From contig JAUCBJ010001932.1 in NCBI GenBank assembly GCA_032718475.1, forward strand, positions 2,108 through 66,107: a stretch of 64,000 bases of DNA, written 5' to 3'. The DNA is from Nemertoderma westbladi. Taxonomy: Eukaryota; Animalia; Xenacoelomorpha. The notes beneath the pieces were generated by a model, which had not been told where the DNA came from, made no database searches, and was given only the letters and a program-made list of their open reading frames with translations. Below are positions 27,385 to 57,000 of this stretch, in pieces; the stretch's first letter is position 1, and each line of letters begins with the position of its first letter. The position numbers were made by a program, and so were the translations under genes.

Positions 27385-29079
27385 TATCTACTACTAACTA
27401 CTACTACTAGGTCGAGCGAACTCGGACAGTGGAAATGAGTGAGATCCTTCCAGGCTTCCCTATTCTCCATAGTTGTCGCAATTTCGTTTCTCCCAAGTTC
27501 AGTATCCCTTTCAAGTTGATCTATATATGTTATGGCTGGTCGTCCACGACTACGCTTTCCATGAGTTGGTTGCCAGATAAGTAGTCATCTTTACTTCGCC
27601 AGCAGTGCCCACTGAATCTTAATCTGCGTTCAAGGAGGGTGGTTGATACATGTGGTATTGTACCATAAAGCTCGGCGTTTGTCATGTGTTGTCTCCAGCT
27701 GATGTTTAGGGCTGCCCTTAGTAGTCTTGTGTAGCAACCATCAATCCGTTGTTCAAGTGATTTAGTCAGTGTCCAGGTCTCACCCCCGTATAAAAATACA
27801 CTTTCCACTGTGGCTCGAAAGAACTTAGTCTTCAGGTGCCTGGAGAGATCTGATTTCCAGATGGTATCCATTTTTGATAGAGCTACCCAAGCCTTTGCTT
27901 TCCTAACTTCTATGTCCTTTTGCTACTCTCTATCCATGATCCAAGGTACTGGAAGTCGTCGACCTTCCTTAGTTGATTATTATCAATGGTTGTCAAGTTT
28001 CCATTAACATTAAAGGTCATGCATTCGGTCTTGGTACAGTAGCATTTATATGCAATCCAACCTCCTTAGCAGCCCTCTCCACTTTATTTAGAAGAAGCTG
28101 TGCATCTGCTAGCTTATTAGAGAGCAGGGCGATGTCATCCGAAAAGTCGGTGTCTGTGACTGTAGTTGCCGGATATCTACTACTTCTGCGTTCTTGAAGT
28201 GTGAATCTCAGATCTTCACCCTTTGTGGCCGTCCTCATTGAGTAATCCACAACAATTACAAATAGTAATGGTGCTAATGTGTCACCTTGCAGTACGCCAG
28301 CCAGGATTGAGTAAAACTCAGTTTCACTATCTGGTGTGAGTACCTGCGCTTCTGTGTCACAATATAACAATCCAATGCCAACAACAATTACTTCTGCTAT
28401 TCCATAAGTTCTTAGGATTTCAAGCATTTTACCTCTATGGATAGAGTCGAATGCCTTCTTGAAGTCCACAAAAGTCATGACTGCGGGGAGATTCTTTGAC
28501 TTAATTCCTTCAATCAGTTTCCGTAGTGCAAGTATCTGAGCTATTGTTGATCTACTTGGTCGAAATCCGTTTTGGCTCTTACGCAGTACTGTAGTTTCTC
28601 TAAAAAAATATTTTGGCGGCTATCACAAGCAGACAAATCCCACGATAATTTGTTGGTATGCCGAGTTCTCCTTTCTTTGTGAGAGGCTTTAGTTGACCTT
28701 TAGTCCAAATTGGTGGAGGATTTTCCCCTTTTAACATCCGGTTGCAAACATTCAATAATGGTCTGTTTAGCACTCCGTTATTCCATACCTCCGCTGGGAT
28801 TTCATATAATCCACTCGCTTTATTATTGGACATGCTTTTAATGCTTCTTTGGAGTTCGGCAGGTGTGAAGTCCCCTGTTTCTATAGGTAGTGTCTTGTCA
28901 TATATTTTCCTTGTAGGGCTGACCTCGATATTTGGTGGCTGCCCAAGTAAATTGCTGAAGTCATTTCTCCACTTCCCAACATGTTCTTCAGGACTATCGG
29001 CTTTGAGGCGCCCCTTTGCACAACTTTTCCGACCAGATACCTCATTTACAGTTTGCCAGGTAAGTCTTGATAGTTGCTG
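27385..29079 (-). mobile_element. RTE-clade LINE, copy B (RT through 3' end), degenerate
   Basis: NYRGI, FVDFKKAFDS, GVLQGDTLAPLLF, FSDD, RRLRFSGHCWRS; (TAG)n tail at 27385-27410. Confidence 0.9.
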
Positions 29080-30782: not shown

Positions 30783-31002
30783 TTTCCCCCTGCTGCTAGC
30801 CTCTACTAGCTGTGTTCTCCCTCCGAGGTGGTTTGACCTCTCACCTCTCTCTGTGGCTTTAGGGCTTGTGTCGCCCCCCCCCCCCCAAAGTTGGTTATGA
30901 GGCGAGATTATTATTGGTAATCTCGTATCCCAAACTATATTGATAAAATGCCACTGGTCCCATTCTAAGGTGGATAGTGTAATCGAATTGAATCCGCTTA
31001 CA
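30783..31002 (-). repeat. Truncated 3' LTR of BEL element 2
   Basis: Matches ~38280-38496 with several substitutions; starts TGTAAGCGG on the minus strand right after the PPT. Confidence 0.85.
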
Positions 31003-31168
31003 CTCCCCCCAATGCTATCTTCCCGGTGAGAAGATAGCATCAAACTTAAGTGCGCTTCAATTCCGCTGGAACCCAACCTAATATCGGGTGTGGGGTGGAG
31101 TCTTTTCTCGGGGTCGGCTTTCCAGATCGACCCCCCCCGGGTGTGTTGTTGCTATCCCTCCTTGGTGC

Positions 31169-31443
31169 AAAAAAGTAAAGTAAAAGTAAATTTTCTTTGG
31201 CCGCTAGGCCAGGGATTACGCACAAAGTCTGACGGCTTATTTCCAGTACGGTCCCCCCAGAACTTTACTCCCCAGAGGAAACTCCAGTACTCATTTAGCT
31301 ACCACTTAAGGATGCAAGGCAGAGATGCGCCCTGGCTGGTCCCTTTAAAGCATTCGTGCCGAAACGAAAACTGCCCTGGCCCATGTGAGGATCGAACCCA
31401 CGACCTACGGGAGATGTGAATTCAATGCAACCACCACACCAAG
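31169..31443 (-). mobile_element. tRNA-derived SINE inserted in the 3' UTR of BEL element 2
   Basis: Minus strand has A box TGGTGTGGTGG, B box GGTTCGATCC, central gccttgcatcct..aaatgagtac (Meta-domain-like) and a (TTTAC)n tail. Confidence 0.7.
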
Positions 31444-32169
31444 GTGGAACCACGTTGTCCCTTATTCTCTCTCTCGCGGACCTCGTTGTCCCTTATTCTC
31501 TCTCTCACAGACCTCCTTGTCCCTTATTCTCTCTCCAGTCCCTTGGGACTCTTCCTTTCTCTCCGCTCGCTCCCCACACTTGAATTGCACTTATTCTACC
31601 TCCTCACGTGTCAACACCTCCTCTCCATACTTCCCCCGAATCCCCATTTTCGTTTTCATTCTCCATACACTTATTGGGTCCCACACATCTGCGCATCATG
31701 TTAGTGGGATCCGTCTAAGTCTTGTCCTGCCGTTCTAGTCAAATAGTCCCCAGTCCCAGTAGCTAATTGGAAAAAGGTTGTACTTGACTCTGGTATATAT
31801 ACGAGTTATATATATATAATAATTAATTATTATAATTATATAATATATATATTATATTATATGCTCGTCTACATGACGCGTCTTAACCCCCCCGCTCGGA
31901 GGTGATATGCCTCGTCACTCCCGGTCTTGCCCATTTTACTCTCTCTCCACCTTTCTCTTCTCTACTAACCTCTCCGCCATCACGAACTTTCCCGCGCTCA
32001 CCCAATTGGTGGGGCCTTACAAAGGCTCAATTTAAGTGAGTGCCGTTAAACAAGATGTTACTAGTTTCGTTCAGTAATGGCCTTCCTCCTACCTTGTTCT
32101 TTCTTTCGTGCCAATATTCCCCTAACTTTATTTTTATTTTTATTTTTTTGTGTTCCCCCCTGTCTGTGC

Positions 32170-32600
32170 TATTATCATATCTACCTTCCTACTTACTTAC
32201 GTGGCGCCTTCAGTGCCCACAACTTCTATGGTACTATGTACCCTACTACTATTACTACCCATGTACATATCCTATACTTCCTCTCACTACGTGGCGCTCT
32301 CAGTGCCCACAACTTCTAACTCCTACGGTACTATGTACCCTACTACTACTTCCATGGTATGCCTATATACCATACTCTCTACTCTCTTACTACGTGGCAC
32401 TCTCGGTGCCCACAACTTCTAACTCTCACGGTACTGTGTATCCTACTACTACTCTCTTGGTATGTCTATATACCACACTCCCTATTCTCTAACTTCTAAC
32501 TCTTACGGTACTATGTACCCTACTACTATTCTCATGGTATGTTAATATACCATGCTCCCTACTACTACTACTTAGTGCTACGTACTATCTACTACTATTA
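32170..32600. repeat. Degenerate tandem repeats downstream of integrase in BEL element 2
   Basis: Recurring tacgtggc..ctc.gtgcccacaacttcta...ggtactatgtaccctactact blocks. Confidence 0.8.
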
Positions 32601-35600
32601 CTTTCAACTATCTCGCTTCTTATTTTATTATTTGCTTATTATTTATTTTTTGTATTTTTTATGTGTGGGAAGGGCGTCTCGCCCTCATTCCCACCCCCTT
32701 CAGTCCAACATATTGGACGACTAAACTCTAAGGTGACCCTTCCAATAGGCAACACTTTCCCACAGCCCTCCTGTAGGTCTTCCTATCTTTGGCCCCTATC
32801 TTCCCTCCTATCCTCACTTCCACCAATCGGACTCTTCCGTCCCCATCGGGGTAAGTATCTACCACTCTCGCTAGTCTCCATTGGTTATTGATAATTGTGT
32901 CATCAGTGACGATTACCAAGTCTCCCTTCTTCAACTCTCTATTGGTATTTCTCCACTTACTCATCCTATGAAACGTCGGAAGATACTATTCTACCCATCT
33001 TCTCCAATACTCCAGACTTATTGCCTTGGCTACTTTCCAGCTTTGACGGGAATGTATGTCATCTGGATCTACACCCCGCATGTCAATCGTCGCCGTCCTC
33101 TCCATTAGCAAGTGTCCTGGTGTTAGCACGTCTAGTGATTCCGGGTAGTCATTCTCTGGATATAGCAGTCTGCTATTAATGATTCCCTCGCACTTGGCTA
33201 GCACCGTTCTTAATACGTCCTCAGTGACCATGTGGTTGTTCATAAGCTTGGTCATCAAACGCTGGGAACTTCTGACAAGCCTCTCTACACATCCTCGGCC
33301 ACCCAATTATCCACCAGCGTGCCGGCCAGCCAGCAGTCGACCAGCATCAATGTCGTGACTGATCGGCCACCTTCTCCCATCACCCTTACCGGTGAGAACC
33401 CCGAGTAGTACCGTTCCCCTTCTCTTCGCTCCTATGGTGCTTGTCGCCATCGTTTGACCTTTGCCTTGACCGAATCTTATTGGTGTCTCCTTACACTCTT
33501 CAACTCTGTGTCCTCCTACCACACATCGGTGACAAATTCCATTCTTATCAGAGAAGGCTATCCGATCTTGTTCGAGTAGCGCCTGCCAATGCTTACAGTC
33601 CATGGTCTTATGGGTTCCGTCTTTATGCAATTGACATTTGTATCCTGGGTTGTAACATTCCTTGTATAGCCCTACACGTATTGCACGTAGATTCACATCT
33701 ACCGGTTTAGTGTTTTGGTTATTTGGATATGGTAGACTGGGTGTGTTGGAATTATATTTGTTCGTGTTATTATTTTGACCCTGTTCGTGCCATGGTGTGG
33801 CCCTACTCCCAGCTATCTGTGGACTTGTAGTTCCCTGTGTCGCCGCGTATGGTAGCGACTGCCTCAACTTTGGTAAGGAATTTGCCGCACTATGTTCTGG
33901 TTTCGGCCTGTTGTATTCGGTCCTCGGCACCGTCCCCAGACTATCCTCGCTGTAGACTGGGTCCGTGATTAGTTCCGCCTCGTAATTGAGGAAGTTCGAC
34001 ATTTCCTCTAGGCCTGGTTCCACACCTTTCTTCTCCCAATCTTTCTCCACTTATTCCTCAGCCAGATCGGTAGTGCCTGCGCTATTGTAGTGATGTTATT
34101 CGATGCGTTGAGTTTGTAAGGCGCATCTAAGGTCTTTAGCACAATCAGCACCTTTTCGACTTTATACTCGAAAGTCATGATGCTGACAGGGTTATCCTAT
34201 AGTCCACCTGATGTTATTCCCCTCAAGGTTTGCCGGATGATCTTAGCAGGGTTTCCGAATTCCCTGTCTAGGGCCCGCCATGCAGTCGTGAATCCACCCT
34301 CGATACCCTGGTACTGCCTCACGATGTCGTATGCTGGCCCCCCTGTGTAAACTTGTAAGTATTTTAGGCACTCCGCCTGCATCAGATTCTTTATCAATGT
34401 CTCGTTACTGTACATATGCCGGAATTGCAGATATTCCTCCAGTTTGCTTCCATCGAATTTGAACGGCTCCACTGATGGCAGCTCGATCGTGGTCTTAAGC
34501 CCATCGATGAGTGTCACCATTCACATCGCTTGTACTTCTAGTGCGCTCGATGGATGCTGTACAGATTCCCCTGCTGCTGGGTGCGGTTCGCCCGTCAGGC
34601 CTGTCGACCTCCTTTGCGTCGGATATATCATTGGGGGTAGCGGCCCCCTCCATATCTCTGTATCGCACGATTTGTTTTGGTCCAAGGGGTTTGGGGTTTT
34701 TGTTCTTGGTTGAGTGTATTGTTGATATTGTAATGGTGGAATGTCACCCTGTCCCCCCCCCCCCCCCACCGGTGTTATATTTGGTATTGGGGTTGATATT
34801 ACCATGTTAGGGCCTAAACATCTATCGGCAATAGCTCCCCCATCCCCTGGGTATATGTTATATCCTTGCATATTATAGTCATACTGGTATGCAGGTACCG
34901 GTCTAGGCCTATCCACTCCTTGCCTATCTACCGGTATATATGCAGCGACTTCCGGATCTAATCCCATTGTCCGCGCTACCCTATCGCCTACACTATCTCT
35001 TCCAGCATGGCCTATAGTATGTGCAGTAAGGCCTACAGTATGTCCTGCAGTCTGCCTGTGTCCTTCCGGACCGAAGTTTATTCTTCTCGAATATTCCAAG
35101 AAGTCCTCCCCGCGACTACCGTACTCTCGATCAGCAGCTACATCCCATCGGGAAGTTTCTCTTCGATCCCCTCTCCTGTCCTCGTCCTCGTACCGGTACA
35201 TCCTGTACCCTTCTCCTGGTGTGTGGTATATCTCACCAGGTTGCGTCTCTCCGGGGCGACGGCAATCTCCCGGAGTTCGACCCCACTGACTCTCTAATTC
35301 CATCTCTGCTACCGACGGTTTACTGTCCGTCCTTCCTCTCCGGTTGCTCGTAGCAATGCTTCTTCTATTCTCTTCACTTCTTCTCTCTTCAGTGTAGCGA
35401 TCCCCTTTGTGAGATCGCGCTTCGACCTCCCGGATAAACTCCACTGTTCTTCTTCCGTCTTCCGACTGGGCTCGACATCTTGTCGCTTGCCCCCTCATGG
35501 CGCCAACCACCTCTCTCTCTCTACCCGGTTGGACGCTCCTGGGGATACTCGCAATCCCCTACTATTCTCTGTCGTTGGGTGCCGCGGTTCACCTAACTCG

Positions 35601-37840
35601 CCGCGCGCATTGTCCGCCAACACTTGTGGGACATTCTCTGCCCCCCCCCCTCTCGCCACTAATCTCTCGTGGTGGGGTTCCCGTAGCCCCCCCCCCCATT
35701 TGGCCTCTCTTACTTCGCTACCTCCCACTTCGCTTCTACGCCCCTCTCTAGTCGACGCACTATCTATACCCTGGCTGGGTCTACTCACCCCCGCCTCTCC
35801 CAGTGCGACTGCGTGGCCTTTCAGGCTCCCGGTGGGTTGACCTACCCCCCCTACTCCCTGTGCGACTGCGTGGCCTTGCAGGCTCTCGTTGGGTTGAATC
35901 ACCCCTACTACTCCCTGAGTAACTACGTGGCCTTGCAGGCTCTCACTGGCCGGACCACCTGTCTCCCCTATGTTTGTATTAATTGCACCGTTATTAATAA
36001 CATTATTTTGGTTAATTTCCTCTGGGTTATTATCTAACGTAATATTGTTACCTAAATTATTTAAATTATTTTGTTCAGAATTGGGGTTATTATTTTGATT
36101 ATTTTACATCTTTAATTTAGAATTATTATTTGGATTATTTTGCACATTTAAATTAGTATTATTATTTGGATTATTCTGCACATTTCAATTAGAATAATTA
36201 ATTCTAAAAATATTAAAATATTATTTCCTGCAAGAAAGGTTTGAATAGGGTTGTCTAATATGGTACTATTAATATTAATTCTTTCTAACGTATTATTATT
36301 ACCCCCCCCCCCCCCGCCCGTACGGTTACACCAGTCCTGGGTCTGTCGTCCAGCACCTGTAAGTGGGGTATTAACAAACGTTTCCATTACTTCTGGCTTC
36401 TCGTAAATACTACCCAAACCAGCCTCTCTCTCTGATAATCCCAACTTTGCCAGTTCTAACTGGCGCTTAGGCTTCACCTGGTATTGCATGAGCCCCCTCA
36501 ACCGGGTATGCATATCATCCCGCATACGCTTTCCCGATGTCTCTCTCTCTCTCTATCCTCTCGCAAACTTTGGTTCTCTAATTCTGTCTCCCTCGCCTCC
36601 CGCTCTCTACGCTTGTTTTCTATTCTCGCCTCCCGCTCTTTACGTTCGTTCTCTACTCTCATCTCCCACTCTCTACGTTCGTTCTCTACTCTCGCCTCCC
36701 GCTCTCTATGTTCGTTTGTTTCCCTCTCTACTCTCGCTGTCTCTTTCGCTTCTCGCTCTTTGTGCTCTTTGCGCTCTTTCTCTACTCTCGCCTCTCGCTC
36801 CTCTCGCTCCTCGCGCTCGTTTATCTCTCTCTCTCCTCCCGCTCCCTGCAGTTTCTCGCCACCCTCTCAGCCCTCTCTCTACATTCCCTTGCTAACTCTA
36901 TCTCTCTCTCTAATAATGCGATTCCCTCGTCTAGTTGCCTCTCCAACTCCTTCTGATCCAGCGCCACAATGTCTAGTTGACACCCCAGATCTATCTCTAA
37001 CACCCTTCTTGCTTTTGCGGAGGATGTAGCGGACTTATCGGTCGTGACGGACTCCCGTCGCCTCTCTGTCACACTAACTTTCCCCCGCTTTCTCGGGTTC
37101 TCGCTTACCTATGACACCGAATCCTCGGGGTTAACCTTGGGTTCGCCGTCGTGCGGGTCCGCCTATCCCACTAACTTAATTCCCCTTGCATCCACTAAGT
37201 AAGGCCCTACGTACACTATGCCTGGCTCCATTACCCCGGACCGCCACAATTCAAACAGTTCCGTGGCGACCCCCCTTGCTCTCTCACTCCCCAGTTCTCC
37301 CTGTCCGAAATGGACCAAATAACGAAAATGTTTATTCGACTCACCTAGACTCTGTTATAGTTTAGGCTGGTCTACCTTTCTCCCCTCCTTGGCCTCTTTG
37401 AGTAGTTTCTTGGTGGCGTTGTAGGCCCGTCGTAGCCGATTACTCGTCCCGACGTCCTCTTCATCGACTCTACCTTCTCTCCTCGTCCGGCATCGTACCG
37501 GCAGCCCCACTGTCGCCGTTCCGGTGGGCCGTCCGTCGCCCTCAGCCGGTGACTGGCCAGCAACTTCGGTACTCCGACCGCCGTCGTCGTCGTGCGTCGA
37601 CCGGTCTCCCTCTCTCCTTCGTAGTTGACGGCCGCCCTCCGCTTGGGCTACCGGATCATCCCTCGTCGGCGAATCCGGCGTGGCAGGCCGATACCATCTC
37701 GTCGTGGCCTCTCGGATCATTTGGTTGGTGTCGTCCGGGGTCCGCAGCGGCATTCTCTCCCCCTCTGATAATCGGGGCTACTGATTGCTCATCTTTACTT
37801 TCCTTGGCAGTCACAGTTTGTTAGTTGGTCAGTTTATGAC

Positions 37841-38496
37841 TGTGACAGGATCATAGATCCCGACAGGGTTAGATATGTACGCGTCACCATTTGCTGGAGC
37901 AGCTGTGTTATAGTCACTTTGGCCGAAGGCCGTCGGGAAAATAAGAGAGTTTGTGTTTCTCAATATTAATCTTCCGAAATGATAATAGCACAGGACTATG
38001 TATGTAATGAATATCACAATACAAAATAACAGCAGAAAATACAACACAGATATTAATCGGTTATGTTGGTAATGGTGACGGTCATAAACTATGATCGGTC
38101 TGTAACTCTGTAACTAATGAACTGACCGGTAAATCAGTAGTACAGAATAATATATGATTGATACAAACATATATTGGTTTCACCTCTTACTTTACTTGGC
38201 CCTCTGTACCCAGTGGATGCTTTCCTATCTCTAATCACATGCTTCCATCCCCGCTATTGGCTAATACACTAATTGTCACTTTCCCCCTGCCGCTAGCCTA
38301 TACTAGCTCTGTTCTCCCTCCGAGGTGGTTTGACCTCTCACCTTTCTCTGTAGCTTTAGGGCTTGTGCCACCCACCTCCCAAAGTTGGTTATGAGGCGAG
38401 ATTATTATTGGTAATCTCGTATCCCCAACTATATTGATAAAATGCCACTGTTCCCATTCTAACGTGGATAGTGTAATCGAATTGAATCCGCTTACA
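37841..38496 (-). repeat. 5' LTR of BEL element 2 (656 bp)
   Basis: Minus strand TGTAAGC...GATCCTGTCACA; end motif shared with the element 1 LTR (GATCCCGTCACA). Confidence 0.85.
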
Positions 38497-39408: not shown

Positions 39409-42380
39409 GGGGGGGGTATAATAATTGGGGTCAAAAAATATAAAAAAAATTTTATACCCGTTTCTTGTAGCAAATTTTATGGAGATTTCAAATCTGTAAA
39501 CAGTTTATTTCTAGCTTGTCTAGTTTTCGAGTTATGGCTCATTATATAGACACGCATCCTGAAAATTATTTGAAAAAAATGACAAAAATTAACAAAATTT
39601 CCGGCTTGTTGCACTGAAATCATTGTATTGGCTAATAAGTTATTACAGGTTGGAATGTATTTTAGCGGGAAGTTTAAAACGAGAATTTGCACATTGTTAT
39701 GTTTTAGTTACTAACTGTATGCTGTATTGGTGTTTCAATCAATGCAATCAGCAGTTTTGACGGACACAGACTATAGAGCGTCCTCCATCTTCGAATCGAA
39801 AATTGTACATACATCGTTGACGATATAATTTTTATAATACAGTATGCCACGAATAACTCAACAACGGAAAGCAGGATTTCGAGGAACCAAGAAACAAGAT
39901 ACCGGTACATTGAACCTCGCGCATATGAAATCGATTTCAGTACCGGTACCGGTAGTGCCAAAAGATCGAGAACCGTCGCTAATAGCATCGAATCTGAATG
40001 TCCTACCCTCAGATGGAAAGTTGGAGGGATATAACGTTGTAGCAACGCAAATAATAAAGAAACTGATAATGGAGAAACATGATGATAAGCAATGTGACGG
40101 TACAGTAGTGATAAATGAGTCACATCGTGGTTATAGTACCAATTTTGAGGGGAAATGTTCACGTTGTGATTGGCAATATTCTACTTTCACGAGCGACCAA
40201 GTTTCTCGAACAGAACCTCGTCCTGGAAGAAAAACAGCGGATGTGAATCTTCGTGCAGTACTGGCTTGGCTTTATGTTGGTGGGACCCATGGTGATGCAG
40301 AGACGTTTTCTAGAATAATGTCACTACCATCTCCTGTTGCGAAGAGAGCCTGGCAATTTCATGTCAACGAAATCTCGAAGGTCACGGAATCACTTGCACG
40401 AGGAAATGCAAAAAATTGTGCAATGAAAGAGATTGACAGGGAAATATGTATATCTTTTGACGGTACATGGATGAAAAGAGGCCATCAATCACTTTATGGT
40501 GCCGCGTTTATCATATCCGAAAATACAGGACATGTCATTGATTTCGATGTTTGTTCAAAATACTGTAATATTTGTAGCCGCAACAAAGAAGAAGATGGCA
40601 ATGCTGATCATGAGTGTAATATAAATTATTCAGGGTCCAGTTCAGGTATGGAACCTCATTTAGCTGTTAAACTATTCAATAGATCCCTATCAAATAATGG
40701 TGTCATATATCAATCAATGGTATCGGATGGCGACAGCAGCGTTATGAAGAACATATTGGAGTCCGATCCTTACAGAGAGCAGAATGTAACAGTGCAGAAG
40801 AAAGAGTGCCTGAACCACGTTGCGAAGCGTCTATATACAGGTCTTTCCAATGCTCGCAAAACTCATAAACTTGGAGGCAAGGGAGGGTTGACTGATAGTC
40901 GATGTCACCAATTGCAGTCATATTACCGAAATACGATCGTGAAGAATATAGCAGATGTTGATATAGATAAACTCTCAGAGACTGAAAAATCAGTGCTCAT
41001 AAGCACGATTCGAAGTGAAATCGTGGCTGCAACACATCACTATTGTGATTATGGAGATAATGTTGAGAAACAACATGAGTTATGCCCTGAAAATAAGTGG
41101 TGTAAATTCAAAAACAATGCTATAAGTTACAAAAATGTAACATTTATAAAAGAGGCAAACATGAAGTTTATTTTACCTGTTTATGAACGCCTAACAACGA
41201 GCGAAATTCTGGAACGCTGTATCCCTGGCCTCACACAAAATCCGAACGAATCTCTGCATTCACGGCTATGGACTCGTCTATCTAAAGAAACGTTTGTGGG
41301 TCTAAGTACACTCATGTTTCATGTTTCGTATACTGTTTTAGTTCACAATCGGGGGTGTTCAGCAGAACAGATAATTTTGAAGAAGCTTGGCCTTGAGGAA
41401 GATGATGGTGACCTTGCAGAACGAGCAAAGAAGGTCAACCTAAAACGTAAACAGAAAAGTACTGAACACAAACCATCAAAGAAATGGCAAGCACCCGATC
41501 ATAAGTCATATAAATCTGGGGCCTTTTAATTAACTTTTTAAATTTCATTTTAAATTTTTAAATTTAATTTTAATTAATGAATATTAATATAGTGCCTAAT
41601 TTGAATTATTATTTTTTATTGATTTCAGTTTTTTGTTCAAATTTTGTCAAAAAATTCACACCCTTTAACATGTCTTTTATATGAAATAATATGACCTTAA
41701 GATTAACATGCGATAATAATACAATTTTTGGAATCTACATAAAATTTGGAACTAGATGAAAAAAATTTTATTAGAATTCACTGAGTTTATCTCATTTAAT
41801 CGAAATTTCAAAAATTTAACTTCATAATAAAATAAACAAACTTTAACTTTAAACCTGTTTTTCTCCAATTAGCATTTTTCAAACGAAAAATGCTAAGGCT
41901 CTGTCAAAAATGGCCCAAATGTGCTGATTTTTTGCATGATCGATGATTGTGGGGTCCTTTACAAAATGCATTGACAAAATTTTGATATTTTTTTAAAAAC
42001 TCAATTTTTTCGAAAAATTGGGCCAAATTTTTGAAATTTTGGTCATTTTTTGGACCAAAAATGTCCCTTTTGGTGCTTTTTGCTCTTCTCGACAAGATAT
42101 CAAAATTTTGTCAATGCAAATCGTTTGGGACGTCCTACTGACTTTCTCACGTGAGTTTTGAAGTATTTGGATAATTTGGCTAGAAGCCTTAGCATTTTTT
42201 TCATTTTTTGCCTTTTTGGCAAAATTTTGGCGAAAAAATAAAATTTTTGAAAAATTTTGAATTTTTCCAAAATTTTAATTCCTTAGTCACAAAACTCAAA
42301 ATATGACTCCTAGCAAAAAAATAATTTTAGATGCATCTATAGAGCGTCCAAAATTTATGGTCTATTATTATACCCCCCCC
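39409..42380 (+). mobile_element. Kolobok-superfamily DNA transposon, apparently complete (2972 bp)
   Basis: TTAA target duplication (39405-39408 and 42381-42384); perfect 17-bp TIR GGGGGGGGTATAATAAT; host RTE is contiguous when removed. Confidence 0.88.
39844..41529 (+). CDS. Kolobok-type DDE transposase, 561 aa, intact
   Basis: SFDGTWMKRGH, CSKYC..C..HEC..NYSGSS..ME, VSDGDSS, KKECLNHVAKR and TQNPNESLH motifs. Confidence 0.88.
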   Translation: MPRITQQRKAGFRGTKKQDTGTLNLAHMKSISVPVPVVPKDREPSLIASNLNVLPSDGKLEGYNVVATQIIKKLIMEKHDDKQCDGTVVINESHRGYSTNFEGKCSRCDWQYSTFTSDQVSRTEPRPGRKTADVNLRAVLAWLYVGGTHGDAETFSRIMSLPSPVAKRAWQFHVNEISKVTESLARGNAKNCAMKEIDREICISFDGTWMKRGHQSLYGAAFIISENTGHVIDFDVCSKYCNICSRNKEEDGNADHECNINYSGSSSGMEPHLAVKLFNRSLSNNGVIYQSMVSDGDSSVMKNILESDPYREQNVTVQKKECLNHVAKRLYTGLSNARKTHKLGGKGGLTDSRCHQLQSYYRNTIVKNIADVDIDKLSETEKSVLISTIRSEIVAATHHYCDYGDNVEKQHELCPENKWCKFKNNAISYKNVTFIKEANMKFILPVYERLTTSEILERCIPGLTQNPNESLHSRLWTRLSKETFVGLSTLMFHVSYTVLVHNRGCSAEQIILKKLGLEEDDGDLAERAKKVNLKRKQKSTEHKPSKKWQAPDHKSYKSGAF

Positions 42381-42727
42381 TTAAGATCTTCTCTCTTACA
42401 AGTAGCCTCAGAGTTTTGCCATGGCACATACTGCTTTCGTTAGGGTTTCTGGGTTTCTGGGTGAAATGCCTCTTAGCTAATTCCTTGTGGGCTGTTATTA
42501 TATTCTGGTATAATGAATAGGTAGACTGATCTGCATCCATAGCTGAAGTGCTTCAAAGCGGTTTTGAACTTCTTCTGTGTAAGCATCCTTTACTGCTCTG
42601 CCACTGTCAGTTCTGAATTTTATCCCTGTCAAAGTTGATTCGCTTGCTTGTCCTGGGTTTTCTGGCTCTCAAACTCAGTCTAATCTCTGCAGTCACAATT
42701 CTGTGCCAATCCGAACCAATTAGGTAG
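42381..42727 (-). mobile_element. RTE-clade LINE, copy C, endonuclease-end part
   Basis: Reverse complement of 1865-2190 (DADQSTYSLYQNIITAHKE). Confidence 0.85.
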
Positions 42728-42787
42728 TTGCCTCGCTGTTAATCAACAGCATGATTAACAGCGAGGCAACTACCTAATTGGTTCGGA
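42710..42787. repeat. Perfect 36-bp inverted repeat with 6-nt loop
   Basis: tccgaaccaattaggtagttgcctcgctgttaatca / acagca / tgattaacagcgaggcaactacctaattggttcgga. Confidence 0.95.
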
Positions 42788-43213: not shown

Positions 43214-43218
43214 GTTTG

Positions 43219-43759
43219 TGTTAGCTTATTCAATCCCGCTAACACCCCATAAAGTTATAAGCCGATAAGCAATATTGGGAGCCACGAGATTGGGTAATTA
43301 ACCAACTCGTGGCATCCCAATAAGAATGGGAAGGAGAAGCACACAATGAGGGTCAGGGGCCAAACCCCTAACCCAGAGAGAATAGGTGGAGTGAACGGGA
43401 ACACTCCAAAGGGCGCCAACAAGGGTATCAACCAATCAGAGGGGGGAAAGGCATCGATTAGGTAGAGTAACAAGGCCAACCGTGCAATATAGCCACTTGG
43501 CAGTAATAATACCAATTCAGTTATCTCAGTGCAATACCGGTGCTAGATTAGGTTACAATAGTTTTAGATAGGGAAGGACCGGGACTTTAGTTACCGTATC
43601 CCGCCTTCCATATACGACAATATTATATCTATATCTATATCTATATCTGCATATCATATTATATACGACAAACAGTACAAGCTCATTTACTCTTTATACA
43701 CGGCGGGGACGCGTGAACTAAAACCGGATAAACCGGGATTCCTCTTGGATCCCGTCACA
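43219..43759 (+). repeat. 5' LTR of BEL element 1 (541 bp)
   Basis: Differs from the 3' LTR by two visible substitutions and one 6-bp microsatellite indel. Confidence 0.97.
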
Positions 43760-43768
43760 GTAACTAAA
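43760..43768 (+). promoter_or_regulatory. Non-tRNA primer-binding site (GTAACTAAA), complementary to LTR 43586-43594
   Basis: Directly follows the LTR terminal CA; no TGG; reverse complement TTTAGTTAC lies inside the LTR. Confidence 0.7.
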
Positions 43769-43826
43769 TCAGCTGCCGCCCTAGATAAACTCTGTAACCA
43801 CCAGCCACCAAATCTGCAGGGGAAAG

Positions 43827-46131
43827 ATGAGTCAGTCGGGTGAGATAACACCGACGCGGACCCCGGACGAAGAGCTAACGATCCGCGAGGCCGCAACCAG
43901 GCGATATAGGCCCACGACGCCGGACCCATCGATAACGGGTCATCCGGCAGTTCAGGACGAGGGGGGCCTGGAACCTGAGGTCGAGCCGAGAGGAAGAGAG
44001 AGCGAGACGGAGGGAGAAGGAGACGAGTCGACACGGGACGGGGGTCGACGCACCGATGTCGCCGGCCAGCCACAGGCCGAGGGCGACGAGCGGCCCACCG
44101 AAACGGCGACGGTGGGGCCGACGGTGCGGCCCCGGACGCAGAGAGACGAAGGAGATATCGGTACCGATGTCGCCGGCCAGCTACAGGCCGAGGGCGACGA
44201 ACGGCCCACCGGAACGGCGACGGTGGGGCCGCCGGTACGACGTCCAACCCGGAGAGACGGACGAGGGGTCGGCGACGAGGACGTCGGGGTTTCTGAGCGA
44301 CTTCGACGGGCCTACAACGCGACCTGGAGACTACTAGAGGAGGCCAGAAAGGGGAAAACGATAGACGAGGTAAAACTGAAGTCAGGACTAGGTAAGTCGG
44401 ACAGACATTTATACTATCTAATGCATTTCGGGCAGAGAGAATTGGCCGAGGAGAGAGCGAGAAAGGTTGCCGAGGAACTGTATGACTCATGGCGGCATGG
44501 GGGTATACAACCTAGTGTAGTGTACATAGGGCCATATATAATCGATGCCCGGGGTATAAAATTAATGGGTTGGAACAGACCTGAAGGGGGCGAATCCGAG
44601 GTTAACCCCGAGGATTCGGCCTCGTCGGTCGGAGGGAGTTCCGGGAGGAGGGGGAAAGTTAGTAGATCGGGAAGGCGGAGGGAGTCCGTCGCAACCGATA
44701 AGTCTGCTACATCCTCCGCGAAAGAAAGACTGGTGAGAGAGGCAGGTGCCGCGTACCGTCTCGAGCTGATAGAGCAAGGTCAGAGGGAAATGGATAAACG
44801 GCTAGAGGAGGGGAGAATGCGGCTAGAGAGGGAAGCGGCATTGATTAGAGAAACCGGAGAGAGGGCCGAAAGGGCTTTGAGAGGCCTTAGGGAGTGTGAG
44901 GAAAAGGAGGAAAAGGAGTGTAGGGAACGTGAGGCGAGAGAGGAAAGGGAACGCAAAGAGCGCGAGGCGGAACGCAAGGAGCATGAGGCAAGGGAGGAAA
45001 AGGAACGCAAAGAGCGTGAGGCGGAACGCAAGGAGCATGAGGCGAGAAAGGAAAGTGAACGTAAGGAGCGTGAAGCGAGGCGAAGGGAGAGTGCTAGGAA
45101 AGTAGTAGAGTTGGCTGAGCGGGACACGCGGGAGTGTGAGAGGAGAATGGCAGGAGCCGAGCGACACCATGATGAATTAAAGAGATGCCAAAGTGAGCTT
45201 GGGGAACATAGGGTTAGACGCGCGCACGAGCTGCAACTGGTGCGGGCGGGGGCGTCTGAGAGCGAGACAGGCTCGAGTATTTTAGAGGAGCCAGGGGCCG
45301 TGGATACATTTATTAATACCACACTTACAGGGACCGCACGACAGACCCAAAACTGGTGTGACCGTACGGGCGGGGGGGGGGGGGGGGGGGGTAATAATGA
45401 TAATGGTACAGTAGACGTGGTTAATATTAATAGTACCGTATGGGATAATTCTAATCAAACCTTTATTGCAGGAAATACTTTGCCTAGTGGTAGTAATTTA
45501 AATTTAAATCAGAACAATCTTAATATTAATGTAGAAAATAATCCTAATATTAATGTAGCTACGCAAAATAATCCAAATAATCAAAATAATAATAATTCAA
45601 ATAATTTAATTAATGAGCCAAGCCCGAATTTACAAGATAATTCAAATGATTTTATTTCGAACGAACAAGTTAATTCCGTTCCCAATACGGGACACGGGTG
45701 CTATTAATGTAAACACGTCGGGCGTGTATGGCCAGACAGATGGGGCCCAGGTAGGCCACGTAGTTGGTAGGCAGGGAGTGGCTGGGTTGGATGGACCCAG
45801 CGAGGGCCTGGTAGGCCACGTAGTTGGTAGGCAGGGAGTGGCTGGGTTGGATGGACCCAGCGAGGGCCTGGTAGGCCGCATAGTCGGTAGGCAGGGAGCA
45901 GAGGGCCTGGTAGGCCACGCAATAGCAGAGAGAGAGGCGGGGGTGAATAGACCCGACCGCGGTAGGGTTGATGTGTCGACTAGAGAGGGATATAGTAGCG
46001 GGATGAGAGATAGCGAAGTTAGATGTGGCGAGTGGGGGGGGGGGGGGGGGGGGGCTACGAGAGCCCCACAACAGCGAGTTAGCGGCGAAAGGGGGGGGGG
46101 CAGAGAGTGTCCCACAGCCGTCAGCGGATAA
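43827..46131 (+). pseudogene. Long low-complexity / coiled-coil N-terminal gag extension, frameshifted
   Basis: ORFs 43827-45707 and 45613-46131. Element 2 reads through the poly-G junction in one frame (35495-35902), so these pieces belong to a single gag-pol ORF. Confidence 0.75.
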
Positions 46132-49100
46132 TGCGAGGGCCGAAATAGGTAAACCGCAACAACCGGCGACGGAAAGTAATAGGGGGATTGCGAGTATCCC
46201 CAGCGGCGTGCGACCGAGCAGAGAGAGACAGGTTGACGTCGTAAGAGGGCGGACGAAGCGTCGAGCCCGATCCGAAGAGGGAAGAAGAACAGTGGGGTTT
46301 AACCGGGAGGTCGACGAGAGATCTCACGGGCGGGAATACTCCACTGAAAGGAGAAGAAGAGAAGACAGTAGTAGAAGTATCGCCGCGAACGATAGAAGAG
46401 CGAGGACGGATAGCGAGCCGTCGGTAGTCGAGATGAGAACAGAGAGTCAGTGGGGTCGGACTCCGGGAGATTGCCATCGCCCCGGAGAGACGCGACCCGG
46501 CGAGGCGCACTACGCGCCGAGAGAGGGGTACGCGATGTACCGGTACGAAGATGAGAACAGTAGAGAGGGGGGTCGAAGAGAAACTTTCCGACGGAATATA
46601 CCTACCGATCGAGAATACGGTAGCCGCGGGGAGGACTACTCGAGAAGGATAAACTTCGATCCCGAGCGACACATGCAGACTGTAGGACATACTGTAGGCC
46701 TTACTACACATACCGTAGGCCATACTGAGAGAGGCAATGTAGGCGATAGGATAGCGTGGACAACGGGATTAAACCCGGAAGTCGCGGAATACATACCGGC
46801 GGGTAGGCCAGAAGCTGATAGGCCTATACCGGTACCAGTACAACAGTATGACTACAGCATGCAGGGACATAACATATACCCAGGGGAGGGGGGAATTATT
46901 GCGGATAGGTGCATGGGCCCCAACATATTAACATCAACCCCAGTACCAAACATACCGGTGGGGGGGGGGGGACAGGGTGACATTCCCCCATCACAATATC
47001 AACAATATACCCCGATAGGAGCAAGAACAACGAGACCCTTGGATGAGAATAGGTCGTGTGATACAGACATATGGAGGGGGCCGCTACCCCCGATGACATA
47101 CACAAGTCAGAGAAAGTCAAGAAATAGGACAGACGGAACGCACCAGACAGGGGAAACTATACAGCATCCGTCGAACCCATTGGAAGCACAGGCGATGGGG
47201 ATGGCCACGTTGATCGACGCGTTGAAAACGAGGATCGAGCTACCACCCGTGGAACCATTCAAATTCGATGGGAGCAGGCCGGAAGAATATCTACAGTTTC
47301 GGCGCATGTATAGTAACGAAATACTAACAAAAAACTTGACGCAGGCGGAGTGCCTAAAGTATCTGCAAGTGTACACGGGAGGCCCAGCATACGATATCGT
47401 GAGGCAATATCAAGGAATAGAGGGCGGCTTCACGACAGCATGGCGGGCACTGGATAGGGAATACAGGCACCCGGCCAAGATCATCAGGCAGACGCTGAGA
47501 GGCATAACATCGGGTGGCCTACAGGATAATCCCGTTAGCATTAAGACGTTCGCTAACAAAGTCGAAAAGGCGCTAATCGTGCTGAAGACGCTAGACGCGC
47601 CGTACGAGCTCAATGCGTCCAACAACATCACCACGATAGCGCAGGCACTACCAAACTGGCTGCGCAACAAGTGGAGGAAAATCGCCTTCTCCACTCGAGA
47701 TAAGAAGGGTGCGGAACCGGGTTTAGAAGAAATGTCAAACTTCTTAAACTACGAGGCTGAGCTAATAACTGACCCAGTCTATAGCGAAGACAGCCTGGGA
47801 AAGGGACCGAAGACAGAGCACAACACATCAAACGCATTACCGAGACTCAGGCAATCATTGCCATATGCAGCGACGCAGGGGACCGCAAGTCCACAGCTAG
47901 CCGAGGATAAGACAACACCATGGAACGGACAGGGAAACAATAACAACACGAATAAACATAACCCCAGTACGTCCAGTAGGCTAAATCCAAACAATAAGAA
48001 TAGTAGGGACTTTGGTACAAACGCAACTGCGATACGCAATGCACTGTATAAAGAGGGCTACGACCCAAAGAGCAAATGCCAGCTACACGCAAATGCGCTT
48101 CATCAAACCATGAACTGCAGGTACTGGCAGGCGCTACCTAGGCAGGATCAGATAGATTATGCGTTCAGCAATAAAATCTGCTCGCGATGTGTAATGAGTG
48201 GACATAGAGCAAGGGAGTGCAAGGAGAAGCCAATAAAATTTGGTCAAAAGAGAGGCCAAACGATGGCGACCAGCACAGTAGGGGCGAAGGAGAGGGGAAC
48301 GGTGTTACTTGGAGTATTACCAGTGCAAGTTATCGGGGAAGGCAATCGATCAGTAACAACACTAATGCTGGTTGATAGTGGAGCTGCCTTCACATTAGTC
48401 GAGGAATGGGTGGCCGAAGAGATAGGATTGAGAACGAGGCCAAGCAGGATGGCGGTAACAACCATCTCTAGCAAAGATGAGATCCTGGAGATGAGAACAG
48501 GACGGTGCGCAATTGCAGCAATGGCACCAGGATGCGACTATGGGGCAACCATCGACCCCATCCAAGTGATAGAGTCAATTAATATTAATGCCAGGCGACC
48601 AACCAACATCGAGGTCGAGCAGTATAAATTCCTGGACGACATTGACTTCTCAATCCCAGACGTGGACGTTAGGAAGGTGTCCATCATAGTGGGCATGGAC
48701 TGCCCAACGGCCCACGAAAGAATGCAAACGGTCTTCGGCGAAGACAAGCAGAGCGACCCGGTGGCCATATTAACACCATTCGGGTGGACGCTGAGTGGTC
48801 CAATTAAGAGCAAGATACCATTTAGGATGTCGGAGACATCAGGATGCATGTTCGCGGGTACTATGCAGGAAATGGGTGACGAGGGAGCAGAGGAGCAGCT
48901 TAAAAGACTGCTCGGACAGGATTTCGAGGGACTGAAAGAAACCGGAGTCGGGACCTCAGTAGAAGACAAGCAGGCTTTACAAAGCGTGGAGGAATCAATG
49001 ACATGCGATGAGGGACGGTATACTATAGGAATGGTATGGAAACTACCGAAGATACCGCTGCCCGACAATAGGGGGATGGTACTCACGAGACTCCGCAAAC

Positions 49101-50611
49101 TGAAACAAACACTAAAACGGAGCCCCGAGAAGAATGAGTACATCCACAGAACAATTAAGAAGTACGTCGAGAAAGGATGGGCCGTGGAGTTACCGGTCGA
49201 CGAGCCGAACACAGATAGGACATATTACCTGCCACTGCACGTGGCTTTAGATCCAAAGAAAGGTAAACTAAGGATGGTAGTCGACGCATCGGCAAAGACC
49301 GACGGAAAGTGCTTAAACGACTACCTGTTAGAAGGCCCAAACATATACAATTCGGGCATAGAGGTGTTACTTAGATTTAGAAATGGGAAACACGCCTTCA
49401 CGTGTGACATAGAAGGCATGTTCAACCAAGTCCGTGTAACGGAAGAAGATAGCGACAGTCAGCGCTTCTTATGGTATAACGGCGAGGAAGAACCGTCGAT
49501 AATACCGGCATATAAGATGGTAGTACAGAACATGGGGGCCAAGTCGTCTTCATTTACGACGACTATGGCAGTGAGAGACACAGTAAAGGGGAAGGAAGAT
49601 AGATACAGCAGTAGGGCCATCGATATGATTCGACGCGGCTTCTACGTAGACGACGGAATGGAGTCTGGAAATACGGTTAAGGAGATACTGGATACAGGGC
49701 GCGAGGTTCGCGACATCCTAAAGGGATCCGGCTTTAACCTGACCAAATTCCAATCCAGTTCGGAAGAATTTATCAAAGCCATAGAGGACAGGAAACCAGA
49801 ATCGACCATGGATAATCCCACAACAGCCAAAGGGCAGGACATGGCGATTAAGAGAACGGAATCCCAGCAGAAGGCATTGGGAATCGTGTGGGATAGAGAG
49901 ACAGACGAACTGAAGTATCAGCTGAGCCAGGAGGGCGCAGACATCCACACGAAGAGGGGTTATGTATCGTATATAGCAAGGATATACGATCCCCTAGGCC
50001 TAGCATCCCCATTATTAGTCACGGGGAAACAGATACTCAAGAGAGTATACAAATTGAAAGATGAGTGGGACGTAGAGGTACCAGAGGAAATCAAGAAACA
50101 GTGGAGCAAGTTGACAGGAGACTTGGGGAAGATGGGAACATACAACATGCCACGGGTGTATTTCCCGGATGGGAACATGACGAATCTGGACCTACACATG
50201 TTCTCCGACGCGTCATTGGAAGCGTACGGAGCGGCACTCTACTTAGTACAACGAGAGGGGGCTCATAAGCCAAGACTAGCCTTTAGCAAAGCAAAGTCAA
50301 CGCCGCCAGATTCAGCATCAGTTCCTAAGTTAGAATTGACAGCTGCGAGACTAGGAGTAAGAGCCACAGCCTACCTAGTGGATACTATTCCCAACATAGT
50401 GGAGACACACTACTGGACGGATTCCATGGTAGTGCTTGGTTGGCTACACAACGAAAGGACGATATACCCGACATTCGTCGCGAATAGAGTGGACGAAATA
50501 AGGGCGAGTACAGAACTGGAAAGGTGGCACTACTGCCCAACAGACGACAACCCAGCGGACTTGTTGTCGAGGGGCGTGGTACGCCACACTTTCTTGAAGA
50601 AGGAAGTATAG
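46025..50611 (+). CDS. BEL/Pao gag-pol (gag core, zinc knuckles, protease, RT, RNase H)
   Basis: FDGS..EYLQF, C..C....H....C, LVDSGA, YYLPLH..KLRMVVDAS, FYVDD, LHMFSDAS, VPKLEL, DNPADLLSRG. Ends at a premature TAG (EV*WQHGPRFL). Confidence 0.93.
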   Translation: MASGGGGGGGLREPHNSELAAKGGGAESVPQPSADNARAEIGKPQQPATESNRGIASIPSGVRPSRERQVDVVRGRTKRRARSEEGRRTVGFNREVDERSHGREYSTERRRREDSSRSIAANDRRARTDSEPSVVEMRTESQWGRTPGDCHRPGETRPGEAHYAPREGYAMYRYEDENSREGGRRETFRRNIPTDREYGSRGEDYSRRINFDPERHMQTVGHTVGLTTHTVGHTERGNVGDRIAWTTGLNPEVAEYIPAGRPEADRPIPVPVQQYDYSMQGHNIYPGEGGIIADRCMGPNILTSTPVPNIPVGGGGQGDIPPSQYQQYTPIGARTTRPLDENRSCDTDIWRGPLPPMTYTSQRKSRNRTDGTHQTGETIQHPSNPLEAQAMGMATLIDALKTRIELPPVEPFKFDGSRPEEYLQFRRMYSNEILTKNLTQAECLKYLQVYTGGPAYDIVRQYQGIEGGFTTAWRALDREYRHPAKIIRQTLRGITSGGLQDNPVSIKTFANKVEKALIVLKTLDAPYELNASNNITTIAQALPNWLRNKWRKIAFSTRDKKGAEPGLEEMSNFLNYEAELITDPVYSEDSLGKGPKTEHNTSNALPRLRQSLPYAATQGTASPQLAEDKTTPWNGQGNNNNTNKHNPSTSSRLNPNNKNSRDFGTNATAIRNALYKEGYDPKSKCQLHANALHQTMNCRYWQALPRQDQIDYAFSNKICSRCVMSGHRARECKEKPIKFGQKRGQTMATSTVGAKERGTVLLGVLPVQVIGEGNRSVTTLMLVDSGAAFTLVEEWVAEEIGLRTRPSRMAVTTISSKDEILEMRTGRCAIAAMAPGCDYGATIDPIQVIESININARRPTNIEVEQYKFLDDIDFSIPDVDVRKVSIIVGMDCPTAHERMQTVFGEDKQSDPVAILTPFGWTLSGPIKSKIPFRMSETSGCMFAGTMQEMGDEGAEEQLKRLLGQDFEGLKETGVGTSVEDKQALQSVEESMTCDEGRYTIGMVWKLPKIPLPDNRGMVLTRLRKLKQTLKRSPEKNEYIHRTIKKYVEKGWAVELPVDEPNTDRTYYLPLHVALDPKKGKLRMVVDASAKTDGKCLNDYLLEGPNIYNSGIEVLLRFRNGKHAFTCDIEGMFNQVRVTEEDSDSQRFLWYNGEEEPSIIPAYKMVVQNMGAKSSSFTTTMAVRDTVKGKEDRYSSRAIDMIRRGFYVDDGMESGNTVKEILDTGREVRDILKGSGFNLTKFQSSSEEFIKAIEDRKPESTMDNPTTAKGQDMAIKRTESQQKALGIVWDRETDELKYQLSQEGADIHTKRGYVSYIARIYDPLGLASPLLVTGKQILKRVYKLKDEWDVEVPEEIKKQWSKLTGDLGKMGTYNMPRVYFPDGNMTNLDLHMFSDASLEAYGAALYLVQREGAHKPRLAFSKAKSTPPDSASVPKLELTAARLGVRATAYLVDTIPNIVETHYWTDSMVVLGWLHNERTIYPTFVANRVDEIRASTELERWHYCPTDDNPADLLSRGVVRHTFLKKEV

Positions 50612-52282
50612 TGGCAGCATGGGCCACGATTTCTGAGCGATAAGGAGGCCTGGCCGCCGATGAGAAAGGTGGACCCGGGCTCAGAAGTAGTGTCAGAGGG
50701 AGAAGAGGGAGATTCAGAGGGAGAAGAGATATACTCCCAGATGGTGAGGGAGATTAGGGACGTGCAACCAGGACGGGAACTGTGCGATAACCCGACGGAT
50801 AAACTCCTCAGCTACAGTTCTAGTTGGTATAAGACCAAGAAACTAGTGGCATACTGGAGAGCCTTCGGGAACTTCCTTGGGGGAGTTGGCAAGGACAAGA
50901 AGATCAGGACAACCATAGATCTGGAAGGAGCGGCCAAGGCAGTGATCCGCTATGAACAACGGAGGAACTATGGCGACGAGGTGGAACGCGTCGGTAACCA
51001 ACAGCACCTCCGACGGGACAGCGAGCTGATTACGCTGTCGCCATAACTCAATGACGACGGGATTCTAGTAATGAATTCTAGGGTGGGATACAACAACAGC
51101 ATAGTCGTACCACCGAAACCCATCATCATTCCTACAGGATCGCCAATAGTCCACCAGATCATATGGGACTCCCACAAATTGATATTGCACGGGGGCACCA
51201 ACCGAACCCTCACAGAGATAAGGAGGACCTATTGGGTCAAACAACTGAGGAAGAAGGTAAAAGCGGTAGTGGGGCAGTGCCAGACCTGCCGACGAGCGAA
51301 GAAGGAGCGAGCCGTACAGGAGATGGCGCCACTACCGGCGAGTAGGGTAAGACAGCACGACCCGCCATTTACGCATTGCGGTGTGGACATGTTCGGGCCG
51401 ATAAAGATCAAAGTGATGCGACACACGGAGAAACGCTATGGCATTATCTTCGTATGCAACAATACGCGGGCGGTAGGGATAGAACTCACCCAAGATGCAA
51501 CTGCATCAGCATTCATTAACGCCTTAGAAAGGTTTAGGGACCGCAAAGGTGGGACGATCGCAGTGATATACAGCGACAACGGCACCAACTTTGTGGGCGC
51601 AGAGAGTGAGATGGCAGAGGCCTTGGACATCTTGGAGGGGGAAGAAGTCAGGGCAGCCATGAGACGACGACAAGTAAAGTGGGAGAGAAGGACGCCGTAT
51701 GCACCACATACACTAGGATGCGTCGAGAGACTGGTGGGCAGTTCAAAGCGTCTAATGACGAAGCTGATGAACACCCTCATGGTCACTGAGGACGTCTTAC
51801 GGACAGTACTTGCGAAGTGCGAGGGGATCATTAATAGCAGACCGCTATATCCGGAGAATGATGACCCTGAGTCATTAGATGTGCTGACGCCTAGCCATTT
51901 CCTGATGGAAAGGCCAGCGACCATCGATATGCGGGGTGTAGACCCAGATGACATACACTCCCGCCAAAGTTGGAAAGTCGCAAAGGCAATAAGCGCAGAG
52001 TATTGGAGGAGGTGGGTCGAGGAATACCTACCCACACTCCATAAACGAAGCAAGTGGAGGAAGTCAAACAGGGAGTTAAGAGAGGGAGATCTCGTAATCG
52101 TTACGGATGATACTATCATCAACAACCAATGGCGGTTGGCGAGAGTTGTAGGCACCTACTCCGACGAGGACGGAAGAGTCCGATCGGTAGAAGTGCGGAT
52201 AGGTGGAAAGATAGGTGCGAAGGACAGAAAAACCTACAGGAGAGCTGTAGGCAAATGCTGTCTATTAGAAGGGGCACCTTAG
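50612..52282 (+). CDS. BEL/Pao integrase portion, same frame, with one more internal stop at 51044-51046
   Basis: H..LHGG..CQTC, GVDMFGP, SDNGTNFVG, GCVERLV, NSRPL, LTPSHFL, YWRRW..EYL, WRLARV. Confidence 0.93.
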
Positions 52283-56460: not shown

Positions 56461-56995
56461 TGTTAGCTTATTCAATCCCGCTAACACCCCATAAAGTTAT
56501 AAGCCGATAAGCAATATTGGGAGCCACGAGATTGGGTAATTAACCAACTCGTGGCATCCCAATAAGAATGGGAAGGAGAAGCACACAATGAGGGTCAGGG
56601 GCCAAACCCCTAACCCAGAGAGAATAGGTGGAGTGAACGGGAACACTCCAAAGGGCGCCAACAAGGGTATCAACCAATCAGAGGGGGGAAAGGCATCGAT
56701 TAGGTAGAGTAACAAGGCCAACCGTGCAATATAGCCACTTGGCAGTAATAATACCAATTCAGTTATCTCAGTGCAATACCGGTGCTAGATTAGGTTACAA
56801 TAGTTTTAGATAGGGAAGGACCGGGGCTTTAGTTACCGTATCCCGCCTTCCATATACGAAAATATTATATCTATATCTATATCTGCATATCATATTATAT
56901 ACGACAAACAGTACAAGCTCATTTACTCTTTATACACGGCGGGGACGCGTGAACTAAAACCGGATAAACCGGGATTCCTCTTGGATCCCGTCACA
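56461..56995 (+). repeat. 3' LTR of BEL element 1 (535 bp)
   Basis: Direct repeat of 43219-43759. Confidence 0.97.
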
Positions 56996-57000
56996 GTTTG

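Follow-up and report, generated by a model that had tools for sequence, protein, structure and literature searches.

A divergent BEL/Pao lineage of Nemertoderma westbladi with primer binding sites complementary to its own LTR RNA: a probable case of Tf1-like self-priming

The RNA of the LTR retrotransposon Tf1 pairs through its first 11 bases with the primer binding site, or PBS, and RNase H cuts it between bases 11 and 12 (excerpts of PMC7175516 and PMC4600332). A DNA copy of the primer is made at the cDNA's 3' end (excerpt of PMC11042837), and the mechanism is said to require perfect complementarity with the first RNA bases (excerpt of PMC5445492). For the related Tf2, the choice of start site determines whether the RNA contains the primer (excerpt of PMC5341516). 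Excerpts of PMC6317226 and PMC4600332 give self-priming as described for Tf1/sushi and Tcn1 (gypsy) and as proposed for TAR, Houba and Osr-1 (copia). Tf1 and Tf2 of Schizosaccharomyces pombe, Tj1 of S. japonicus, the Tf1/sushi group and Tcn1 share with the two elements studied here, E1 and E2, a PBS that is complementary to the 5' LTR of the same element. Beside the primer-PBS duplex, Tf1 reportedly also forms a helix between R and U5 and a stem-loop within U5. Self-priming has been demonstrated in Tf1, and some gypsy and copia lineages are predicted to use it. For BEL/Pao elements, which are reported from animals only (excerpt of PMC3601003), a full-text search of open literature, which did not extend to papers under subscription, to Repbase or GyDB entries or to supplements, listed no report of it; an earlier mention may exist. 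A term look-up in the BEL/Pao surveys PMC554778 and PMC3118150 gave no mention of tRNA or priming, and the excerpts of PMC8220671, PMC5443660 and PMC2864245 held nothing on BEL/Pao self-priming.

The window, by which we mean the whole 64-kb stretch of DNA that was analysed, contains two related LTR retrotransposons lying back to back, E1 on the plus strand and E2 on the minus strand (Table 1). E1 shows TG..CA LTRs, a polypurine tract and a target-site duplication; its LTRs are two substitutions and one 6-nt indel apart, and its reading frame has breaks near 45707 and past 50611. The order of its Pfam domains (DUF1759 gag, protease, RT, Peptidase_A17 RNase H, integrase plus DUF5641) is that of BEL/Pao. 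PF05380 was found in the nearest proteins and PF03564 or PF18701 in most of them, and by these Pfam families the polyprotein is classed as BEL/Pao-type and not Ty3/gypsy. The best identities of the E1 RT-RNase H were 28–39% among the matches listed; the lineage is therefore poorly sampled. The E1 RT query gave no confirmed match in viral contigs, and DNA patterns from the U5 end gave 0 matches in viral and metagenome contigs. E2 has TG..CA ends and a polypurine tract as well; its target-site duplication is unreadable because the 3' LTR is truncated. In its interior, gag and the start of the protease are fused at about 33293 to the C-terminal half of the integrase, and RT and RNase H are missing. 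The initial 220 nt of the 5' LTR match the 3' LTR at 93.6%. The LTR end at 37841 is the point where contigs of other copies depart (loose ends in run X2), and the E1 LTR end agrees with it. E2 and E1 share 64–67% amino-acid identity in gag and 88% in the C-terminal half of the integrase (tblastn), and 71% DNA identity over 3.3 kb of the gag region (blastn). On these comparisons E1 and E2 are classed as sister families, E2 being the older, defective one.

Table 1. Window positions of the E1 and E2 features.
Feature	Positions	Strand	Basis or remark
E1, whole element	43219-56995	+	
E1 target-site duplication, 5 bp	43214-43218 + 56996-57000		
E1 5' LTR, 541 bp	43219..43759	+	
E1 predicted self-primer, 9 nt	43586..43594	+	
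E1 R-U5 helix 5' arm	43595..43605	+	partner 43702-43711; a single bulge and a single G-U
E1 PBS-like segment in U5	43713..43722	+	competes for primer
E1 U5 hairpin	43734..43754	+	
E1 PBS position	43760..43768	+	adjoining LTR, without TGG
E1 gag-pol	46007..52282	+	DUF1759, protease, RT, RNase H = Peptidase_A17, integrase, DUF5641
E1 polypurine tract	56452-56460	+	directly 5' of 3' LTR
E1 3' LTR	56461..56995	+	
E2, defective element	38496-30783	-	
E2 5' LTR, 656 bp, TGT..TCACA	37841..38496	-	3' LTR likeness, loose ends of other copies, E1 LTR end
E2 predicted self-primer, 10 nt	38081..38090	-	exact complement of 37840-37831
E2 R-U5 helix 5' arm	38071..38080	-	directly 3' of predicted cut
E2 R-U5 helix U5 arm	37882..37891	-	
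E2 degenerate PBS-like segment within U5	37871..37880	-	weak competitor, -2.2 kcal/mol
E2 U5 hairpin	37846..37862	-	5 nt from LTR end
E2 PBS position	37831..37840	-	adjoining LTR, without TGG
E2 leader 8-mer, complement of 37846-37839	37810..37817	-	rival of primer-PBS helix; duplex energy
E2 internal region, frames broken	31003..37830	-	blastn + tblastn vs E1
E2 polypurine tract	31003..31010	-	adjoining 3' LTR
E2 3' LTR, truncated after 220 nt	30783..31002	-	without primer and U5

Several other features of the elements and of the window were recorded. A non-coding block upstream of the polypurine tract (56325-56476, plus strand, in E1; 31134-30987, minus strand, in E2) is 84% identical between the elements, against 71% for gag DNA, and its two versions have similar predicted hairpins with a long stem immediately 5' of the polypurine tract. 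The block is likely a cis-element for packaging or plus-strand priming; a self-encoded primer within it was rejected, since its best pairing with the 5' region misses the PBS. E1 carries an extra 773-aa ORF (ORF3; 53423-55744, plus strand) between integrase and 3' LTR that has no E2 match. The likeness of its N-terminal part to 3'-5' exonuclease clusters is confined to language-model features (0.94; PF01612 in 50% of the cluster members), and weak zinc-knuckle hits follow; two homology searches found no sequence homologues, and a single-sequence structure model reached a pLDDT of 32. Between E1 and E2 lies a Mutator-like transposase with an open frame of 563 codons (39838-41529, plus strand). 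Pieces of LINE-type endonuclease and RT occur at 8394-13750 and 59166-60725 (plus strand) and 28017-28619 (minus strand). A 29-bp G-rich satellite at 15750-24449 (313 copies) and 61241-62126 sits in a larger duplicated unit common to 14066-25763 and 57825-63271. Three near-identical 74-bp pieces (25007-25080, 57825-57898 and 62690-62763) resemble, when translated by eye, what we take to be the start of a Penelope-type RT. A 78-bp near-perfect palindrome at 42710-42787, with microRNA-family matches under the gathering score, is likely a repeat palindrome.

A sequence-only reading of the window had proposed three pairings at the LTR end of E2: PBS with an LTR segment, the adjacent LTR segment with a U5 segment, and a hairpin in U5. 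All five segments lie where it had placed them, both 10-mers are exact reverse complements of their partners, and the hairpin is present with six Watson-Crick pairs and one G-U. The E2 PBS is at offset 0 because the LTR ends in TCACA at 37841. A published signature of self-primers, from which the copia candidates were predicted, is LTR complementarity of at least 10 bp in a segment starting 0–5 nt after the LTR (excerpt of PMC6317226). E2 has 10 Watson-Crick pairs at offset 0, and E1, with 9 bp, falls one short of this published length; unlike E1 and E2, the copia candidates belong to the copia superfamily and have plant hosts. No TGG was found in the 30 nt downstream of the 5' LTR in either element. 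The 64-kb window holds no tRNA genes, and an Rfam scan of 30500-57100 gave no match at gathering score.

The pairings also stood out from dinucleotide shuffles of LTR plus PBS. For E2, an anchored helix of at least 10 bp arose in 1 of 3000 shuffles and the 10+10 sum in 0 of 3000. The perfect 9-bp helix of E1 was equalled by 4 of 3000, and 10 of 3000 shuffles attained the strict two-helix score of E1. The R-U5 helix was equalled by 1 of 500 shuffles (E2) and 0 of 500 (E1), and the U5 hairpin by 1 of 300 in each element. Once the LTR-end anchor is dropped, the window offers two further non-homopolymer sites with nested 10+10 pairings, each of them inverted-repeat DNA, and such pairings also occur in a C/G homopolymer tract. 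The nested geometry alone is not unique in the window; it is the LTR-end anchor that counts. When self-complementary sites upstream of gag were sought without the anchor, the scan lacked power and was not used as evidence, because E1 itself was equalled by 34 of 60 shuffles.

All three helices are kept in E1. When the two elements were aligned on the LTR-PBS junction, 4 of the 9 primer-PBS pairs differed on both sides and none was broken; an alternative gapped alignment has a matched 4-nt insertion on both sides. Under either alignment, the change in primer and PBS between the two sequences is coordinated. The sequence-only reading had described the LTR families as poorly alignable, with the pairing kept in other letters. 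The second half of this description holds, with four pairs changed on both sides; the LTRs themselves are homologous, at 383 identical columns of 719 when aligned globally together with the 30 bases that follow each LTR. It had further taken the second family as independent support for self-priming. The pairing is indeed kept, and self-priming is its best explanation, but the support is only partly independent because E1 and E2 are sister families with homologous LTRs. The primer-PBS helix is perfect in both families, while the R-U5 helix tolerates bulges and mismatches.

Variation among other copies of E2 was read over 37805-38125 in contigs from four DNA runs, which represent no more than three samples; this gave 35 variant rows at a share of at least 20%. 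Not one of the 20 primer and PBS positions had a variant at this share; at about one variant per 10 sites nearby, this count alone is weak evidence. In the 8-bp core of the R-U5 helix and the hairpin stem, four positions varied and all of them keep a pair in these unphased copies. The pair 38073/37889, whose arms are unphased, is A-U in this E2 and G-C in most other copies, and 37847 is in a G-U pair here and in a G-C pair in many others. A change at 38076, which a single run shows, would turn the pair into G-U. The exchange at 38073/37889 affects CpGs that pair with each other, and two separate deaminations or coincidental decay could account for it, although CpG is hardly depleted here (observed/expected 0.84–0.96). 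The claim that 38080-38071 pairs perfectly with 37891-37882 is borne out in this copy, at 10 of 10, and has to be shortened for most other copies, which pair 8 and not 10 bases because 38072 and 38071 differ without a change in their partners.

Folding of the R-U5-PBS region, which the sequence-only reading had put forward as a check, gave a divided result. The segment 38090-37831 taken alone folds (z = -5.1) into a three-helix junction with a primer-PBS pair probability of 0.94, but the primer-PBS helix is disfavoured once the downstream leader is included. With a start at 38090, its probability was 0.93 with 11 nt of leader, 0.69 with 21 nt and 0.00–0.21 with 30–231 nt; with a start at 38123 and at least 30 nt of leader it was 0.23–0.43. 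For E1 with a start at 43586 and at least 30 nt of leader it was 0.00–0.47, and the PBS-like segment in U5 usually won. The E2 R-U5 helix stays at 0.97–0.98. Competitors of the primer-PBS helix are a stem of 8 bp that joins 37817-37810 to the LTR end (-10.7 kcal/mol, vs -11.6 kcal/mol for primer-PBS in E2), the PBS-like U5 segment, which is strong in E1, and bases directly upstream of the primer; E2 bases 38100-38089 have an alternative pairing with an arm of the U5 hairpin. A better initiator-like sequence, TCAGTT, is present at 38125. Equilibrium prediction alone thus gives no support for a primer-PBS duplex in full-length RNA. Because the predicted folds with leader disfavour it, the duplex would be short-lived, dependent on a chaperone or one of the states of a switch.

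To obtain control loci, the E1 RT was aligned with 29 distant proteins, which led to 79 loci (from the best 80 of 510 confirmed) and 41 further loci. A repeat on both sides of the RT was found in 40 of these 120, and 13 loci were kept in which the two copies fix the 3' end of the LTR, that of L019 through its sister L018. Three more (L032, L035 and L064) were added with LTR ends taken from likeness. Six of the 13 (L028, L049, L091, L092, L097 and L107) have a TGG-type PBS, and their best anchored self-pairing was 3–6 bp unspliced and 0–7 bp spliced. These tRNA-primed controls resemble E1 in RT sequence (about 27–34% identity) and in TG..CA-type LTR ends where both ends are seen. They differ from E1 and E2 in their TGG-type PBS, 0–7 nt after the LTR, and in their short unspliced self-complementarity. 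The 41 further loci mentioned above, L080-L120, come from bacterial and archaeal genome assemblies, nearly all titled MAGs, and are likely host DNA that was wrongly binned.

Seven of the 13 loci lack TGG, and 6 of these 7 have 7–11 bp of unspliced complementarity to the LTR. Together with the three added loci, 10 of 10 non-TGG loci pair over 11–15 bp with their own LTR. In 6 of the 7 and all 3 added loci (L008, L019, L030, L032, L035, L064, L073, L080 and L083, of which L080 and L083 are sisters), the complement of 11–15 nt spans a predicted GT..AG splice junction, which 0–2 of 60 shuffles equalled at each locus. The predicted LTR introns of these nine are 76–451 nt long, with consensus-like donors and pyrimidine-rich acceptors; L077 pairs over 11 bp unspliced and has no intron. 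The nine loci are like E1 and E2 in lacking TGG and in having a PBS complementary to LTR RNA. They are unlike them in that the complement runs across an intron, whereas in E1 and E2 the primer is uninterrupted and each of the two extra helices is strong; a strong helix directly after the primer was found in 1–3 of the 10 non-TGG loci. A splice-built primer was tried for E1 and E2 and rejected, the spliced pairing being 8 vs 9 bp unspliced in E1 and 7 vs 10 bp in E2. The E1/E2 lineage looks intron-less because splicing improves the pairing in neither element.

An RT tree was built from 70 rows, 59 of 129 having been left out. The 10 self-complementary loci fell on one side of one branch (SH-aLRT 94). 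E1 was a long branch outside this self-priming clade, with two tRNA-type loci nearer to the clade; a tree with E1 joined to the clade had the higher likelihood and was not rejected (AU p = 0.76). A tentative reading, to which we lend somewhat less than half our belief, is that a large part of BEL/Pao abandoned tRNA priming. One wide clade would splice an LTR intron to make its primer, and the deeply divergent E1/E2 lineage would use an intron-less primer in a Tf1-like three-helix junction restrained by PBS-like decoys, which would be either the ancestral form of self-priming in BEL/Pao or a separate re-invention of the Tf1 fold.

The position of the complementary segment, its complementarity to the LTR, the coordinated change between families, the lack of a site for a tRNA 3' end and the contrast with the controls are all observed in the sequences. 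Self-priming in some form is, in our judgement, very probable for the E1/E2 lineage, and it is probable that this divergent BEL/Pao lineage primes minus-strand DNA synthesis with its own RNA by a mechanism like that of Tf1. Transcription would start at or near 38090 in E2 and 43586 in E1. The RNA 5' end would fold back on the PBS in a three-helix junction, aided by co-transcriptional folding or by Gag as a chaperone. By analogy with Tf1, an element-encoded nuclease, presumably RNase H, would sever the RNA between 38081 and 38080, and extension into U5 would proceed from the released 3' end, which would be annealed to the first base past the LTR. E1 is predicted by Pfam to encode an RNase H domain; E2 would need RT and RNase H in trans because it lacks both. 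Since a later step copies the primer into the plus-strand PBS, the two would change in concert. The end of the Tf1 cDNA contains such a copy, and a change in the primer could in this way pass into the PBS, which fits a perfect primer-PBS helix beside a looser R-U5 helix.

The likeness to Tf1 extends to the predicted R-U5 helix and U5 stem-loop, which exceed shuffles in both E1 and E2 and which Tf1 reportedly shares. Unlike the Tf1 groups, E1 and E2 belong to the BEL/Pao superfamily, their primer is 9–10 nt, the R-U5 helix encloses about 100–180 nt, and start and cleavage are inferred. Most likely the feature works like that of Tf1 without membership in the Tf1/sushi group.

The elements might instead be self-primed by something other than the intact first 10 bases, that is, by a longer primer from a start near 38123 or by one finished by splicing. 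The AG inside or at the start of both primers would suit this, as would the 9 of 10 pairings at distant non-TGG loci that span a GT..AG junction and the rise of the predicted primer-PBS probability to about 0.2–0.4 for starts at 38106-38126 with 30 nt of leader. Splicing, however, shortens the pairing in both elements, no pyrimidine tract precedes the AG in either primer, and the perfect pairing of E2 ends at 38090; we regard this account as unlikely. It is also improbable, in our estimation, that a host RNA (an internal tRNA fragment or a small RNA) primes, with the LTR-PBS pairing serving as a masking switch or in packaging. Half-tRNA priming without TGG is known in copia lineages (excerpt of PMC6317226), and the predictions around the PBS include several helices that exclude one another and are close in energy. 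Yet the PBSs of the two sisters have different bases at 4 of 9 positions, which would call for two different host RNAs, each with a match in the LTR of the element itself, and the complement ends exactly at the LTR-adjoining base, the required place of a primer 3' end.

We hold it to be very improbable that the pairings lack a function and arose by chance or as the remnant of an ancient inverted duplication. The repeat-rich window does contain the two other non-homopolymer nested 10+10 pairings, but both are inverted-repeat DNA, whereas two families, each with its own letters, have the helix at issue anchored to the LTR end, and it is absent from the tRNA-primed controls.

If Tf1-like self-priming by E1 and E2 is true, self-priming lineages would occur in all three LTR-retrotransposon superfamilies. 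This would bear on the proposal that hairpin priming preceded tRNA priming (excerpt of PMC3601003) and would explain BEL/Pao elements annotated without a PBS. It would also provide a second, distant RT-RNase H for study of the Tf1-type cut in an RNA duplex. With intron-less and splice-built primers within one superfamily, the order of events becomes testable.
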